Sequence record: PZ445465.1
Source of the DNA: a phage
Length of the DNA: 46,037 nucleotides
Direction: 5' to 3' (one strand)
Below the pieces are notes generated by a model. It made no database searches and was not told where the DNA came from. It worked only from the letters and a program-made list of their open reading frames with translations. A program made the position numbers and the translations under genes. Positions 7,916-18,222 of the stretch are shown here, piece after piece. Every line of letters starts with the position of its first letter. Within the stretch, counting starts at the first letter, position 1.

Positions 7916-8387
7916 ATACTGGCGACCACTGGCAATTATTATAATTGTTGTCTCTGGCGCGTTGTGGGCGCGTAGCGAAATCATCAGCTACGGCGACCAA
8001 CGATACGCAGAAGGCAAATCCCAAGCAATCGCCGAACAGAAGGCCGCAGACGAACAAGAGGAGCAACGACGCAATGCAGAACTGCAAAAGATTCAGGCTG
8101 ACGCACAGCAAAGGATTGACGCTGCGCGCAATGATGCTGTCAATGCTGCTGCTAAGTCTGGCAGGTTGCAGCAACAGCTCGCAAATATCCGCAAGCAGCT
8201 CGTCGGATATTCCACCGCTGAGTCCATTGGCAATCCAGCCGCAGAAACCGGAGTTTTGCTTGGAGACGTGCTCGGCAAATCTGTCGAAAGAAATCGACAA
8301 CTGGCAGATTATGCTGACAGGGCAAGAGAGGCAGGATTAGCGTGTGAGGCGCAGTATAATTCGCTGCGTAATAAAAAAGCCCCGTGA
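7896..8387 (+). CDS. Rz: i-spanin (Rz-like)
   Basis: N-terminal TM LAIIIIVVSGALW followed by a coiled-coil region rich in Q/A/E; follows the endolysin. Confidence 0.7.
   Translation: MMSILAKYWRPLAIIIIVVSGALWARSEIISYGDQRYAEGKSQAIAEQKAADEQEEQRRNAELQKIQADAQQRIDAARNDAVNAAAKSGRLQQQLANIRKQLVGYSTAESIGNPAAETGVLLGDVLGKSVERNRQLADYADRAREAGLACEAQYNSLRNKKAP
8131..8340 (+). CDS. Rz1: o-spanin (Rz1-like lipoprotein) embedded in Rz in the +1 frame
   Basis: MMLSMLLLSLAGC lipobox (LAGC) followed by a Pro-rich mature region; lies entirely inside the Rz ORF. Confidence 0.6.
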   Translation: MMLSMLLLSLAGCSNSSQISASSSSDIPPLSPLAIQPQKPEFCLETCSANLSKEIDNWQIMLTGQERQD

Positions 8388-8403
8388 TGGGGCTTGTGTT
8401 TAA
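8376..8403. terminator. bidirectional rho-independent terminator
   Basis: hairpin AGCCCC-GTGAT-GGGGCT flanked by A-run and T-rich tract, between convergent genes. Confidence 0.6.
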
Positions 8404-9486: not shown

Positions 9487-9677
9487 TTCATCGTCACCCG
9501 ATTATTTTCATCAACATTAAAATTCGCACGAATCAAATCATACATGTCATTTTTAGGCATATCAGCCAGCGCCACATAGCAACGGGCAAAGTAGCGAACA
9601 TCACGGAGTGTCAGCGGCTGCCGCTTCTCCACAATGCTGGTGATAATGTCCATCGGCTCGCGTCGTGGTCTTGGCAT
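9483..9677 (-). CDS. hypothetical protein (64 aa), first gene of the leftward cassette
   Basis: ATG 9677 with AGGAG RBS, immediately downstream of the divergent regulatory region. Confidence 0.5.
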   Translation of the reverse strand: MPRPRREPMDIITSIVEKRQPLTLRDVRYFARCYVALADMPKNDMYDLIRANFNVDENNRVTMK

Positions 9678-9700
9678 ATTTACTACTCCTTCTCGAAAAA

Positions 9701-9749
9701 CATCTTGACGTTTCTACATCACTTAGTCAATACTTATTGACGTAGATTG
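9701..9749. promoter_or_regulatory. divergent regulatory region with inverted motif copies
   Basis: GTTTCTACATC (9710-9720) and TTGACGTAGATTG (9737-9749, reverse orientation) between divergent gene starts 9677 and 9777. Confidence 0.4.
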
Positions 9750-9776
9750 TACCACAACGGAAAAGGTGATGTGGAA

Positions 9777-9974
9777 ATGCGATACAAAGAAATAGCAGCG
9801 AGATACCAGAAAGAAGTGCGCGAGGTTATGGAAATCCTTAACGTTCGCGAAGATACCATTAAGTATGTGGAAACTGCCATGTGTTCACTTGCTCTTGAAG
9901 CGGAGGTTGCAGGTCGTGAAAAGGCTGACGAACTTATATCTGCGTTGGTTTATAGTTCAACCAGTAACGGTTGA
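9777..9974 (+). CDS. hypothetical protein (65 aa)
   Basis: ATG 9777 after AAAAGGTG; first gene of a rightward early cluster. Confidence 0.5.
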   Translation: MRYKEIAARYQKEVREVMEILNVREDTIKYVETAMCSLALEAEVAGREKADELISALVYSSTSNG

Positions 9975-10034
9975 ATATGAAGGTTATCTGTGCGTTGAGC
10001 ACGTTGTTATCAAGTTCTACGGGAGAAATTATAA

Positions 10035-10229
10035 ATGGCGCATGACGAACTGTACGAAGAATCGTTAATCCAGCGACTGAATGAAGTTGAGCGCACACGC
10101 GAATGGCTGGAGTGCGAATTGCGAGAGGTGCGCAATCGACTGCAACGCAAACGCAGTCAACAGAAAGATGTTATCGACTGGTCTGGCAATGCACCTAAAT
10201 TTAACAACATTGGAGAATGGTTGAAATGA
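10035..10229 (+). CDS. hypothetical protein, coiled-coil-like
   Basis: ATG 10035 after GGGAGA RBS. Confidence 0.5.
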   Translation: MAHDELYEESLIQRLNEVERTREWLECELREVRNRLQRKRSQQKDVIDWSGNAPKFNNIGEWLK

Positions 10230-10447
10230 GAAAGTTCAGTACGTTAGTTGATTTAATTTTTGCTGACATAAGTGAGGATAACGCCAGAAGCGAGAAGTCA
10301 AAAAATCAGCGTCAGGATATTACGTTTCGCACACTGCTTAAGCAATCAATGCGCAATAAGAAGGAGTGGAGATACAGGCGCGACAGAGTTCTGATAAGAC
10401 TGTGCAAATTGAATATGAATAAGATACTTAAGGATATGACCAAATGA
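10226..10447 (+). CDS. hypothetical basic protein
   Basis: ATG 10226 after GGAG; stop overlaps the next start as ATGA. Confidence 0.45.
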   Translation: MRKFSTLVDLIFADISEDNARSEKSKNQRQDITFRTLLKQSMRNKKEWRYRRDRVLIRLCKLNMNKILKDMTK

Positions 10448-10692
10448 CAGCACCACATATGCCAATGATGAATGATAGCGGGTTGCTGTGCTGCCCATTC
10501 TGTGGCGGGAATGAAGTTTACTTGAATATTGATTTAGTGCTTGTATCTGTCGAATGCGGAGATTGCTGTGCAAGTTCAGGTGAATGGGGTTCACCGGAAA
10601 CCGCTGTCAGGCACTGGAACACCCGCAACGGACACCTATACACCGCAGACGACTTCAATCAGGCAGCAGAGGAGCGTGATTATGGACTATAA
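10444..10692 (+). CDS. lar: Lar-family restriction alleviation protein (putative)
   Basis: CPFCGG ... ECGDC ... AVRHWNTRNG: the paired-Cys zinc ribbon and WN.R signature of Lar-like proteins. Confidence 0.6.
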   Translation: MTAPHMPMMNDSGLLCCPFCGGNEVYLNIDLVLVSVECGDCCASSGEWGSPETAVRHWNTRNGHLYTADDFNQAAEERDYGL

Positions 10693-11170
10693 ATCACAAA
10701 TCATGCGCGTGATTATGAATCACCCCGGTTCAACGCGCGCATATATTGAGAAGCATTGCGGAGGAAAGCATTCAAGCACCACAACGCATCGTTTGCATGA
10801 GATGCTTGCGCTTGGATTCATTCGCCGTGAGAAGTCCGTGATTCGCGGTGGGAAGTGGCAGTATAAATATTTCATCTCTGATGATGCAGCTGGTATTGAT
10901 GATGCTATTAAGTGCCATTTGCTTGATAACGCTGGCGCAGAGGTGAAAGAAATCAGCGTAGCCACTGGCATTGATTACCGAATCGTGAAAAGCCGCATCC
11001 GCATTATGTTTCATAACGGTGATGTAACGCGAAGATATGACCACCACAAGAAGCTGTGGCGTTATTCTTGGCATGAGAAGGAAGTTAACGTCAGCAACCT
11101 GTTTAATTCACTTCTTCGCAATGTAAGAGGTCGTCATGGGGAAAGCCAAACGCAAGAAGCAAGAGTATGA
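10682..11170 (+). CDS. hypothetical protein, possibly DNA-binding
   Basis: ATG 10682 after GGAG; 162 aa; helix-rich basic segments; function not established. Confidence 0.45.
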   Translation: MDYKSQIMRVIMNHPGSTRAYIEKHCGGKHSSTTTHRLHEMLALGFIRREKSVIRGGKWQYKYFISDDAAGIDDAIKCHLLDNAGAEVKEISVATGIDYRIVKSRIRIMFHNGDVTRRYDHHKKLWRYSWHEKEVNVSNLFNSLLRNVRGRHGESQTQEARV

Positions 11171-11312
11171 GCCATTACCGCCATGCGAAATGTCAGGAAT
11201 GCCGCAGCAGGAGGATGTGATTCTCACCGAGGCTGAGTGGCGCAAGGTGGCAAGAGTGCAAATCATGTTCCGCAAACTTGCTGAGGACGTACTAAATGAG
11301 ATGGGCTATTAA
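11136..11312 (+). CDS. hypothetical small protein (58 aa)
   Basis: unlisted ORF with AAGAGG RBS; overlaps neighbouring genes; uncertain. Confidence 0.25.
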   Translation: MGKAKRKKQEYEPLPPCEMSGMPQQEDVILTEAEWRKVARVQIMFRKLAEDVLNEMGY

Positions 11313-11643
11313 GCATAAATCTGGCAGAACTCTGTTTATTACATCGGATGAGTTTATTGCCAATAACCGTAGAAAGATGGGCTGGATAGTGGAGGAAGTG
11401 AAGATGACGAGTAGAGAGCAGTTTGAGGAGTGGGCCAAGGAGAACGGAATGAGTCTTGTTTATGGTGACTGTGATTATGTGTATTCGCCAACCGTATGGG
11501 CGTGGAAAGCATGGCGAGCATCGCGCTCAGCAATTGAGATTGAATTGCCAGCGGTAGAGATTGGTTATGAAATGATGGAATACTACGAGCCTCAACAGGT
11601 TATTGAGGCAATCAAACAAGCAGGCTTAAAGGTGAAAAAATGA
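11296..11643 (+). CDS. hypothetical protein (115 aa)
   Basis: ATG 11296 after GAGGA RBS. Confidence 0.5.
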   Translation: MRWAIKHKSGRTLFITSDEFIANNRRKMGWIVEEVKMTSREQFEEWAKENGMSLVYGDCDYVYSPTVWAWKAWRASRSAIEIELPAVEIGYEMMEYYEPQQVIEAIKQAGLKVKK

Positions 11644-11966
11644 TTATCCCATTAAACGACATTATGAAAGCAGACATCATTCAGCTTGAAGATTATGACA
11701 TGCAACTGGCGTTTGAAATAGAAACTGTTGAGCGTCAACTGCAATATGCTGATAAGAAGAATGATCGCATCTGGCATGAGAAAGCGCTTAAAGCACGGGA
11801 CCACATGAAGCGCACGCGCGCACTTATTAAAACTCGTCTGGATAAGCTGTATTTTGGCGAGGAAAGATATTTGCATGGCGCAATTCTGGCGCAAATCCGC
11901 AAGGAAATGCCTATTGGTAAGTTCATGTCATACGTGCACCGGGCAAAGCAGGAGGCTGGGTTATGA
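11640..11966 (+). CDS. hypothetical protein (108 aa)
   Basis: ATGA overlap with the upstream gene. Confidence 0.5.
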   Translation: MIIPLNDIMKADIIQLEDYDMQLAFEIETVERQLQYADKKNDRIWHEKALKARDHMKRTRALIKTRLDKLYFGEERYLHGAILAQIRKEMPIGKFMSYVHRAKQEAGL

Positions 11967-12151
11967 GCGGCCCAAAATTTCCAGAGCTGCCTGTTGAGGT
12001 TCAGGTTGCATTGATTAATGCAGCAAGTGCAATGGCGACAAAGAAGATTGAGGCAATAGGAAGCGATTACAACAGGAGCATAGACTGGTTTCAGAGGGAG
12101 TATCAAAAAATCTGCGACGCACTCTACAAAGAAAACAGGGGTAGACCATGA
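11963..12151 (+). CDS. hypothetical protein (62 aa)
   Basis: ATGA overlap with the upstream gene. Confidence 0.45.
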   Translation: MSGPKFPELPVEVQVALINAASAMATKKIEAIGSDYNRSIDWFQREYQKICDALYKENRGRP

Positions 12152-12294
12152 TCCAATTACTGTGGATATTATCAGCATACGCATTCGCGAGAGTATTTGA
12201 GGCTGATACTCTGTACCAGATGATTTGCTATGGCGCTCTGTTCTGTCTCTCTGGTGCCGCGCTTGCATTTATGGATGATGTGATTTCAGACTAA
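12148..12294 (+). CDS. small membrane protein (48 aa)
   Basis: unlisted ORF; ATGA overlap; hydrophobic MIQLLWILSAYAF... Confidence 0.3.
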   Translation: MIQLLWILSAYAFARVFEADTLYQMICYGALFCLSGAALAFMDDVISD

Positions 12295-16250: not shown

Positions 16251-16423
16251 CACTTCACCTTAATCATATGCTGTTTTGCAACCTTCAGGCACTCCTCAAA
16301 AATGCCACCCTTCTTTGCGCTCTGATTGCGCTTGTAATACTGAACTGCCGCATCAATTGCCATCTGGTCGATTTCAGGCAGTTTGGTGCGTAGTTGTTTT
16401 TCAATGAATTGTTCTGGTGTCAT
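16250..16423 (-). CDS. hypothetical small protein (57 aa)
   Basis: unlisted ORF; ATG 16423 overlaps the methyltransferase stop (TAATG) and its stop overlaps the DnaN-like start (TGATG); GAGGT RBS. Confidence 0.4.
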   Translation of the reverse strand: MTPEQFIEKQLRTKLPEIDQMAIDAAVQYYKRNQSAKKGGIFEECLKVAKQHMIKVK

Positions 16424-17220
16424 TAAACGGACCTCATGAATGCTTTAATGAATTCTGCTGCGACTTGTGGAACTATGGCATTGCCATAACCGCGCAATCG
16501 TCCCACTCTTGCGGATACCCCATGAGTTGCCTCGCAAAATCCGCCTGGTATGACTCTAGTTTCCTTATCTGCTCCATGGTTGGGTTTCCATGAATCCCAT
16601 AAACATGAAGCCACATCTGGCGATAAAGAGTATCGTTCCTGAATTTTCCGTCCTTTCTGTAAAATGTCTTGCTGAGATCCCCGTAATCCTTCCATCCTCG
16701 CGCCGTTGGTGTCGCCCATCCTCGCGCCAAAGATGATTCTTTTCCTTTCCTGTGGAGAGCCGACGCTGCAAGCTGGCAATACTGACGCCCCGCAGGCGTA
16801 GCCTTTGTCTTCCAGGTTAAGGAATACAAAATCGAGCCAGTGCTTCCCAATTGCTGCTGCAACCTGCTCTCCAAACAGCAATTCAGGCTTGCACTCTCTG
16901 ATGAGCCTGAGAAATGCTGGGGCAAGGTGTCGATCGTCGTCAAATCCGAGAGACTTACCGGCAACGCTAAACGGCTGGCAAGGTGGTGATCCTGTCCAGA
17001 GTCGAGTGCTTTCTGGTATTCCTGCCAGCTGGAGTGCAAGGGGCCACCCTCCGATTCCGGCAAAGAAGTGACACTGTGTAAATCCTTCCAGGTCTGAAGG
17101 GGTGACTTCGGTGATTGATCGTTCATCGACATATCCGTAAGGAATTAGTTTATTGTTAATTAATTCACGCAGCCATGCCGCTGCGCCCTTGTCCCACTCA
17201 TTGTAATAGTGGACCATCAT
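16423..17220 (-). CDS. DNA (cytosine-5) methyltransferase
   Basis: motif I FFAGIGGW; motif IV GSPPCQPFSVAG (canonical PCQ motif); ENV-like FGEQV. Confidence 0.75.
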   Translation of the reverse strand: MMVHYYNEWDKGAAAWLRELINNKLIPYGYVDERSITEVTPSDLEGFTQCHFFAGIGGWPLALQLAGIPESTRLWTGSPPCQPFSVAGKSLGFDDDRHLAPAFLRLIRECKPELLFGEQVAAAIGKHWLDFVFLNLEDKGYACGASVLPACSVGSPQERKRIIFGARMGDTNGARMEGLRGSQQDILQKGRKIQERYSLSPDVASCLWDSWKPNHGADKETRVIPGGFCEATHGVSARVGRLRGYGNAIVPQVAAEFIKAFMRSV

Positions 17221-18029
17221 CACATCTTCTCCAGAATTGCCATCACCTCGTGAATATCAGCAACAGGAATCTGGATAAACTCCTCATTCTCTGCCACTAC
17301 ATGACCAGCAGGAAGAATAACGTGGTCAGCTGGCTTCAGTAACTCAATCAGTCGGTCTACTGGCTTAATCTTTTTCGACTTAAGCACCTTCGCCGTTACC
17401 TTATCCTTGCCTTGCGCCTTCGCTTCTTCGACTGCCTCGTCGATAACTTTAACCGCATCATCGCCATGTTCGCGAGTTACTGCTACGGCATTTGCATAGC
17501 TGATTTGCCCTGCACTGATTCGCGCTTTTACTTCGGCTGGCACATCACCCAGTGACAGGTGCATCTGCACGTCAGAAACTGAGCGCCCTACCTTCTTGGC
17601 GATTTCCTCGTTGGTCCAGCCAAAACCCTTCAGTCGCGTGTAAGCCTTTGCGCGTTCAAACGGGTCAAGCTGCTTACCCTGACTGGACGACACCATGAAG
17701 GCGATTTTATCTGCTTCGCCTCCTGTGAAATCCTTGCACTCAATACGAACAATTGGTGCGCCACGCTCAATGGCACGCAACGCTCCGAGATAGCGATGCT
17801 GACCATCAAGAATGCGGATTCCCTTCTCGTCTGGAATAACTGTTAATGCTGGCAATGGCTGACCTGACTCCCAGCACTGCGCGAAATACTCCACATGCTG
17901 CTCATCTGCCTCACGGATGTTGTATCCCGGCTCAAGATAGATTTGCTCAACTGGAACGAGATATGTTTTGTTAACAGCGATGCCGTTACGCGTTTCTTTG
18001 TCTGAATAGATTTTGCTGAGTGTTTTCAT
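17220..18029 (-). CDS. ParB-like nuclease domain protein
   Basis: ILDGQHRYLGALRA (the ParB/Srx DGQHR motif); start set at ATG 18029. Confidence 0.7.
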   Translation of the reverse strand: MKTLSKIYSDKETRNGIAVNKTYLVPVEQIYLEPGYNIREADEQHVEYFAQCWESGQPLPALTVIPDEKGIRILDGQHRYLGALRAIERGAPIVRIECKDFTGGEADKIAFMVSSSQGKQLDPFERAKAYTRLKGFGWTNEEIAKKVGRSVSDVQMHLSLGDVPAEVKARISAGQISYANAVAVTREHGDDAVKVIDEAVEEAKAQGKDKVTAKVLKSKKIKPVDRLIELLKPADHVILPAGHVVAENEEFIQIPVADIHEVMAILEKM

Positions 18030-18030
18030 A

Positions 18031-18222
18031 TCATTCACCACTTTCTTCTAACAATTGCTCATAATATGCGACGTATTCATTAGCCAGATGGTACAGGCGA
18101 TCAGCAGACTTGCGTTCTGCATTGCTTAAGTCATCAATAGACTCAATGTTGCCAATTGCATCAACACAATCATTGAAGTCTTGCTCCGTGTTACGGAATC
18201 TACAGTAGGACATGTTTGCCAT
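18031..18222 (-). CDS. small acidic protein (63 aa)
   Basis: ATG 18222 with GAGGAG RBS; high Asp/Glu content. Confidence 0.45.
   Translation of the reverse strand: MANMSYCRFRNTEQDFNDCVDAIGNIESIDDLSNAERKSADRLYHLANEYVAYYEQLLEESGE

Follow-up and report, generated by a model that had tools for sequence, protein, structure and literature searches.

The founding member of the Lar family (PF14354) is the 64-aa Lar/RalR protein of the Rac prophage (E. coli K-12 b1348), which is encoded in the recombination module of the prophage and is paired with the antisense sRNA RalA. The activity of this protein is disputed, with restriction alleviation reported on the one side and a DNase toxin on the other. 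In the genetic analyses of Rac, Lar alleviates EcoKI restriction and enhances de novo modification, and removal of Lar enhances restriction by EcoKI; it is believed that both Lar and the Ral protein of phage lambda promote de novo methylation, through a mechanism that is unexplained (PMC3177214). By contrast, Guo et al. (2014) described RalR as a toxic, Mg/Ca-dependent non-specific DNase with RalA as its sRNA partner (PMC4041452), and the RalR equivalog is named an endodeoxyribonuclease toxin in NCBIfam. Two further kinds of small proteins directed at Type I restriction-modification (R-M) systems are relevant for comparison. Ocr and ArdA, which are encoded by phages and plasmids, are strongly acidic, helical DNA mimics. 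Lambda Ral is a small phage protein for which alleviation of Type IA restriction and enhancement of modification have been proposed, and which constitutes a separate Pfam family (PF11058). Ral is not known to prevent the restriction of unmodified lambda, and its effect is modest.

Here we consider a Lar-like gene of a lytic phage. The window, that is, the whole stretch of 46,037 nucleotides that was analysed, is the genome of Escherichia phage ClaudiaMuster (Bas77, PQ850598, Skatevirus) in its entirety. Its GC content (0.467) and the numbers of its restriction sites (1 for EcoKI, 2 for EcoCFT_I (GAGN7GTCA), 5 for EcoRI, 11 for EcoRV and 47 for EcoP1) agree with those tabulated for Bas77 in the paper on the completed BASEL collection (S1 Table), where palindromic sites are counted in both orientations (EcoRI 10, EcoRV 22; PMC11990801), and the N-terminus of the tailspike, MATTPTNK, agrees with Bas77 as well. 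The closest phage-database record found is that of Escherichia phage SusanneMuster (Bas79), which is 97.4% identical over the surrounding 4 kb and encodes a 100% identical protein (Bas79_0028, XPK43395.1). Given that this protein is already annotated as 'Lar-like restriction alleviation protein' in GenBank, both the gene and its label are known. Comparable genes are carried by Bas78, Bas80, Bas81, Skate, C1, ASO78B and IME207, all Skatevirus-type phages, and by Klebsiella phage VLCpiS13a. These genes and the one of Bas77 are all located behind the divergent promoter region, and most of the relatives also have in common with Bas77 the upstream DUF7301 and downstream winged-helix (wHTH) genes as well as the conserved N-terminal and C-terminal ends of the protein. 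All relatives other than Bas79 encode a different core allele, with 46-65% amino acid identity; values of 80-85% are reached in just three metagenomic sequences.

The 82-aa ORF reported in the earlier note is present as described, on the + strand with an ATG start codon, and so are the motifs that were attributed to its product, namely CPFCGG (aa 17-22), CGDC (aa 38-41) and AVRHWNTRN (aa 54-62). Because the product matches PF14354 and PHROG 599, has positional homologues and is encoded with constrained C-terminal codons, the ORF can be regarded as a real conserved gene and not a chance reading frame. Indeed, full-length homologues at the equivalent genomic position were found in 201 phage records. 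At its 5' end, the gene begins within the stop codon of the ORF before it (ATGA at 10444-10447), suggesting that the two genes are translationally coupled, and the 3' end shares 11 nt with the following ORF, which starts at 10682. With overlaps at both ends, the gene is apparently embedded in a string of small, translationally coupled genes. An antisense ORF of the same length (82 aa; 10346..10594, minus strand) was dismissed as a mechanical ORF without support. The coordinates of the features discussed below are collected in Table 1.

Table 1. Features of the Bas77 genome bearing on the Lar-like gene; coordinates refer to the whole window.
Feature	Coordinates	Strand	Details
Candidate sigma-70-like promoter	9705..9734	+	9/12 match, no better than chance
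DUF7301 (PF23975) gene	10217..10447	+	76 aa, basic (pI 10.4); upstream, translationally coupled
Shine-Dalgarno-like AAGGA	10430..10434	+	9 nt before the ATG, read from the sequence
Lar-family C4 zinc-ribbon gene	10444..10692	+	ATG ORF, 82 aa, MTAPHMPMMNDSGLLCCPFCGGNEVYLNIDLVLVSVECGDCCASSGEWGSPETAVRHWNTRNGHLYTADDFNQAAEERDYGL
Hypervariable cassette	10480..10600	+	approximately aa 13-52, zinc-ribbon core; from sliding-window identity
Lar_restr_allev domain	10483..10629	+	aa 14-62, Pfam envelope
Clade-specific conserved C-terminal tail	10615..10689	+	W58-L82, WNTRNGHLYTADDFNQAAEERDYGL; largely beyond the Pfam domain
Winged-helix gene	10682..11170	+	basic (pI 9.8); downstream, overlapping; PHROG 1687 'MarR family'
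C5-cytosine DNA methyltransferase gene	16423..17223	-	265 aa; central PF00145 only (positions 59-165 of 324)
ParB/KorB-HTH protein gene	17220..18041	-	directly adjoins the methyltransferase gene

Membership in the Lar family, as proposed from the motifs, was borne out by the Pfam search, in which the protein scored 34.2 bits on the Lar_restr_allev profile PF14354 (gathering score 28.6, E=2.9e-8), its aa 14-62 spanning positions 3-58 of the 58 in the profile. A match to PHROG 599, 'Lar-like restriction alleviation protein', was obtained as well (E=5e-14). Two narrower NCBIfam models were missed, the subfamily model TIGR03655 (anti_R_Lar) with 35.2 bits, below the cut-off of 39.6, and the RalR equivalog NF007260 with 18.3 bits, far below the cut-off of 113. 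Thus, by these profiles, the protein belongs to the Pfam Lar family but not to the narrower curated Lar and RalR groups. The four cysteines of the ribbon (C17/C20 and C38/C41) are followed by a helix (aa 51-58) carrying A54 and leading into W58-N59-T60-R61 (W-N-x-R). PF14354 was the sole Pfam match, with none to Ocr, ArdA, PF11058, Ogr/Delta or other regulator families. The family is very large, with 6950 relatives recovered at E<=1e-3 when 1.84 billion cluster representatives were searched with a profile. Many of these relatives are tandem arrays of 2-5 Lar domains, reaching up to 431 aa, an architecture that suggests a multivalent binding module and of which we found no description in the literature searched. 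Among the longer relatives, there was no informative fusion to an enzymatic or DNA-binding domain, and matches to other zinc fingers or ribbons were sub-threshold.

The AlphaFold2 model, built with 30 homologues, has a pLDDT of 85 and a pTM of 0.72, with pLDDT above 90 for aa 11-60, and predicts a zinc ribbon with the helix at aa 51-58 and an additional C-terminal helix at aa 68-80. In BFVD, it is most similar to phage proteins annotated as Lar, which match with a probability of 1.00 and an rmsd of 0.9-1.0 A over 45-48 aa; the E-values are only 2.5e-3 to 1e-2, the domain being so small. A sequence search of the PDB revealed no Lar-family protein with a solved structure, and the fold search returned nothing significant (best E=0.08, TM 0.3-0.4) and no nuclease-like fold. 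The best PDB fold matches, the zinc ribbons of Elf1, TFIIB/Brf, Rpb9/C11 and eIF2-beta, have the same three-stranded topology, but none of these matches is significant. Accordingly, the PDB sequence and fold searches were set aside as a source of mechanistic clues, having yielded only insignificant generic zinc ribbons.

Lar/RalR and the Bas77 protein share a zinc-ribbon domain with the CPFC...C..C and A..WN.R helix signatures, and can be aligned without gaps over 45 aa at 33% identity, with the four cysteines and WN.R retained. The differences between the two proteins are nevertheless considerable. RalR scores 53.5 bits on PF14354, compared to 34.2 for the Lar-like protein; it is basic (pI 9.1, net charge +5), whereas the Lar-like protein is acidic (computed pI 4.27, net charge -9), so that a RalR-like binding surface is unlikely; and it lacks both the 20-residue C-terminal helix and the N-terminal extension of the Lar-like protein. 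Mutations at RalR positions 14, 37, 39, 49, 51 and 52 reduced toxicity, and K52Q abolished DNA cleavage (PMC4041452). The corresponding residues of the Lar-like protein are G22, S45, E47, H57, N59 and T60, so that one of the six is kept (N51, equivalent to N59), and the residue at the K52 position, T60, is a nearly invariant threonine across the clade. Furthermore, whereas RalR is paired with RalA in a prophage recombination module, the Lar-like gene belongs to a lytic phage and no sRNA was detected with it: no Rfam family reached threshold anywhere in the window, a scan limited to RNAs with Rfam models. Collectively, the differences in residues, charge and extensions, along with the empty Rfam scan, argue against a DNase toxin of the RalR type and in favour of a protein-binding role. 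They also make it uncertain whether the binding mode would be identical to that of Lar.

The resemblance to the other two groups is more limited. With lambda Ral, only the proposed phenotype is held in common, and BLASTP finds nothing between Ral and the Lar-like protein at E<=100. Ocr and ArdA are likewise small and strongly acidic, but the Lar-like protein is a zinc ribbon and has no match to the Ocr or ArdA profiles. A full-text literature search recovered annotation mentions of 'Lar-like' phage proteins but no functional study of any of them. Considering the conflicting reports on Lar/RalR and this annotation-only literature, the Lar label goes back to a single distant and disputed homologue, and the statement that such proteins counteract Type I restriction is best read as a name transferred from it.

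Published plating data allow this label to be confronted with the restriction phenotype. Bas77, which contains one EcoKI site, plates on the type IA system EcoKI with efficiencies (EOP) of 0.08, 0.042 and 0.1 (S1 Data, PMC11990801). With two sites for EcoCFT_I, a system nearly identical to the type IB system EcoAI (PMC8594841), the EOP drops to 6e-4, 1e-3 and 1e-3 (PMC11990801). Restriction is stronger still by EcoRI (about 3e-5 to 5e-5) and EcoRV (1e-7 to 5e-7) and by the Type III systems EcoCFT_II (1e-6 to 5e-6) and EcoP1 (1e-5 to 3e-5), and Bas79, with the identical protein, shows the same plating behaviour; the authors described these phages as 'markedly sensitive to RM systems' (PMC11990801). 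Bas81, which carries a Lar-like allele and has two EcoKI sites, plates on EcoKI at 6e-4 to 1.8e-3, and the Kagunavirus Bas73, also with two EcoKI sites, at 2e-4 to 6e-4, the latter values being those of the data block just before Bas74, which we assumed to be Bas73 (PMC11990801). Annotation, a clade HMM and a motif scan revealed no Lar-like ORF in Bas73. The EcoKI plating of the phage with the allele and the phage without it thus lies within about 3-fold. By comparison, T7-like phages of the same collection that encode Ocr or a SAM hydrolase show no considerable Type I sensitivity, despite 4-5 EcoKI sites (PMC8594841), whereas Bas77 and Bas81 are restricted.

These data contradict the proposal of the earlier note that the Lar-like gene, together with an orphan methyltransferase and acidic proteins, indicates a layered anti-restriction strategy. 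EcoRI, EcoRV, EcoCFT_II and EcoP1 restrict Bas77 to 1e-5 to 1e-7 and, at the level of Type I systems, EcoKI (0.04-0.1) and EcoCFT_I (about 1e-3) restrict it as well. Of the other proposed layers, the methyltransferase is a short C5-cytosine enzyme in a phage that is still restricted by six R-M systems, and the neighbouring acidic ORFs match no Ocr, ArdA or other anti-restriction family, so that Ocr/ArdA-like proteins among them were discarded on the basis of the profile searches. Viewed by itself, the methyltransferase gives Bas77 no protection from any of the six R-M systems of the BASEL study. The published plating of Bas77 and Bas81 therefore speaks against any strong anti-Type I activity as well as against a layered strategy. 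Avoidance of Type I sites was also considered as an anti-restriction route and rejected. EcoKI sites (AACN6GTGC) are few, with one in the genome (36909-36921, minus strand) versus 6.9 +/- 2.7 in shuffled sequences, but EcoBI-type sites (TGAN8TGCT) are enriched, with 22 versus 10.8 +/- 3.5 and none of 100 shuffles reaching 22, which argues against general avoidance of Type I sites. The Lar-like gene itself contains one of the EcoBI-type sites, at 10473.

The gene is located in a rightward cluster (9747-12294) of small accessory genes, which is parted from leftward small genes by a divergent intergenic region (9677-9747) and runs on into the head genes, with no convincing terminator in between. 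Early expression of the cluster is plausible, judging from this layout. Promoter-like matches in the intergenic region were no more frequent than in shuffled sequence, and the annotation of one relative places a promoter in the same gap on the opposite strand. To the other side, the leftward small genes are separated from the lysis cassette by a candidate bidirectional terminator at 8377-8395, which consists of a GC-rich hairpin (AAGCCCC...GGGGCTT) flanked on either side by T-runs. In most relatives, Klebsiella phages among them, the Lar-like gene occurs together with the wHTH gene, whose product was below the cut-off of Pfam MarR_2. The products of the three coupled genes alternate in charge, DUF7301 being basic, the Lar-like protein acidic and the wHTH protein basic, and a complex among the three is conceivable. 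The remaining genes of the rightward cluster have no assignable function. Among them, the segment 11950-12130 (gene 11963..12151) is present in Bas78, Bas79 and Bas80, whereas Bas81 has a diverged version and Skate, C1 and ASO78B either lack it or have it replaced; hence, it constitutes an indel/replacement module. In Bas78, the module containing the Lar-like gene is itself replaced (1227-2264 of the compared Bas78 locus): DUF7301 is missing, the core of the Lar-like gene differs, as does its C-terminal tail, GFVYSNADYEDINNEVRS, and the gene is followed by an HNH endonuclease gene instead of the wHTH gene, suggesting a homing-endonuclease-associated exchange of the module.

There is considerable variation within the Lar-like gene itself. 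Sliding-window comparison with six relatives (Bas78, Bas80, Bas81, Skate, C1 and ASO78B) shows that nucleotide identity falls to 25-60% across the cassette spanning the zinc-ribbon core, compared to about 90% in its flanks, and recovers by 10630. Most of the flanking DNA is approximately 85-100% identical to these relatives, the exceptions being the replaced blocks in Bas78 and Skate. Consistently, in the protein alignment, the first 15 and the last 25 residues are near-invariant, whereas in between only the cysteine ligands and a few other positions are kept. The alignment contains at least eight deeply diverged core types, and the core is saturated at both synonymous and nonsynonymous sites (pS/pN). 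By contrast, the last 25 codons have a pN of 0.00-0.07 against a pS of 0.25-0.44 in the five relatives with the same tail type, with pN values of 0.15 and 0.45 in two relatives with diverged tails, indicating that the C-terminal tail, within which the predicted helix at aa 68-80 falls, is under strong purifying selection. Relatives in which the wHTH gene is exchanged for NinX or a member of the phiTE_015 family retain the tail motif, GHL[YW]T..DF..AA.ER, too. Accordingly, a link between the conserved tail and the downstream wHTH gene was ruled out, and the tail is intrinsic to the protein rather than a by-product of the overlapping neighbour. Acidity persists as well, being found in 30 of the 30 aligned members of the clade (median pI 4.6).

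Within the allele class of Bas77, which comprises three metagenomic relatives with 80-85% amino acid identity, the core has a pS of 0.04-0.15 and the ends one of 0.13-0.66; in five of the six pairwise comparisons, the pS of the core is below that of the ends of the same gene. This difference indicates exchange of the core, with recombination in the conserved ends carrying cassettes from one genomic background to another. Positive selection was not demonstrable within the class, where the core omega is 0.4-0.9 on 6-9 changes. A second hypervariable pocket is located at 11410-11600, inside the gene 11296..11643 (PHROG 343), with 26-70% identity to the six relatives versus 90-100% in the flanks. 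Given this similar pocket in a neighbouring gene, part of the core pattern probably reflects the general mosaicism of the accessory cluster. The combination of a hypervariable core with a constrained tail can be considered the one new observation of this analysis.

As to function, we tentatively propose that the Lar-like protein binds stoichiometrically and exerts a weak bias on host Type I (IA) enzymes in favour of methylation, in the manner suggested for Lar and Ral. The protein would act as a protein-binding modulator and not as an enzyme, and its target would be the Type IA R-M complex, which is the sole experimentally grounded target for the family and hence makes a weak shift of the Ral/Lar type the most likely role. 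The host enzymes would be nudged from cutting towards methylating; a larger fraction of infections would escape and become modified, restriction would not be blocked outright, and the effect would be small or invisible when wild-type phage is plated. In favour of this proposal are the Pfam and PHROG matches, the ungapped alignment to Rac Lar/RalR, the confident model with its Lar-annotated viral fold matches and the genetics of Rac Lar. Conserved acidity over hypervariable cores, along with the conserved tail, fits a binding protein better than a catalyst, and the location of the gene among the small accessory genes of a lytic phage, at a position kept in 201 phage genomes, was likewise taken into account. 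Since the effect of lambda Ral itself is modest, a weak activity of this type is compatible with the plating data. Against this proposal, the function is transferred from one homologue with 33% identity, and the fold concerned is known to be functionally plastic; the TIGR03655 and RalR cut-offs are missed; the charge is opposite to that of RalR; Bas77 is restricted by EcoKI and EcoCFT_I; and Bas81, with its Lar-like allele, plates about like the Lar-less Bas73 on EcoKI. The alternative derived from the same founder, a RalR-like toxin that would degrade host DNA as a non-specific Mg/Ca-dependent DNase, appears highly improbable: DNA cleavage in vitro and toxicity have been reported for RalR (PMC4041452), and NCBIfam now names the equivalog a toxin, but the Lar-like protein retains one of the six toxicity positions, has T60 in place of K52, carries a net charge of -9 instead of +5, scores 18.3 against the equivalog cut-off of 113, and lacks both a nuclease-like fold match and an Rfam-detectable antitoxin-type sRNA.

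A somewhat less probable alternative to the Type IA modulator is that the protein is directed at a different host target, possibly a polymorphic one, such as another defence system or a target of host takeover, in which case 'Lar' would be the name of a fold only. The variable face of the ribbon would then set the specificity, and the conserved C-terminal helix would serve as a common effector or anchor. Such a role would be in line with the many deeply diverged core alleles in genomes that are otherwise approximately 90% identical, with the cassette exchange indicated by the low within-class core pS (0.04-0.15, versus 0.19-0.55 in the flanks), with the conserved acidity, with the absence of any measurable protection from either EcoKI or EcoCFT_I, and with the size of the family (6950) and its tandem arrays of 2-5 domains, which are typical of a generic binding module. 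However, the within-class core dN/dS of 0.4-0.9 is based on very few changes and does not demonstrate positive selection, and the pocket at 11410-11600 indicates that the mosaicism may be regional, in addition to which zinc ribbons tolerate drift. In a more specific and, in our estimate, unlikely version, the Skatevirus Lar-like gene would be a specificity-cassette locus, in which the conserved N-terminus and a C-terminal effector helix frame a hypervariable, always-acidic ribbon face that is exchanged among phage genomes through recombination in these ends, and each allele neutralises a different variant of a polymorphic component of host immunity; such variants may be found, for instance, among the families of Type I R-M systems or in some other sensor of host defence. 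This version would explain why the alleles of Bas77-81 fail to protect against EcoKI and EcoCFT_I. Also unlikely is a phage-internal function, either as a partner or antagonist of the downstream wHTH protein or as a zinc-finger transcription factor for the head genes. The translational coupling to the wHTH gene in most relatives (Klebsiella phages included), the head genes lying directly downstream in the same orientation with no convincing terminator, and the PDB fold matches to ribbons of the transcription machinery (Elf1, TFIIB/Brf and Rpb9, none significant) would be compatible with such a function, whereas the retention of the same tail where a NinX or phiTE_015-family gene replaces the wHTH gene, the acidity of the protein, which makes it an unlikely DNA binder, and the lack of a match to Ogr/Delta or regulator families argue against it.

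As it stands, the finding of the gene matters little, because the label adds no tested biology. It does, however, call for caution with respect to annotation: pipelines assign the name 'Lar-like restriction alleviation protein' to thousands of small zinc-ribbon proteins, and this label rests on one 1995 genetic study of a protein that has since been reported to be a DNase toxin. The BASEL phages Bas77-81, five near-isogenic and tractable phages of E. coli K-12 with four core alleles and published quantitative restriction data, represent a ready-made test bed for the link between the Lar domain and Type I restriction, and the cassette architecture of their Lar-like gene might reflect an arms race.
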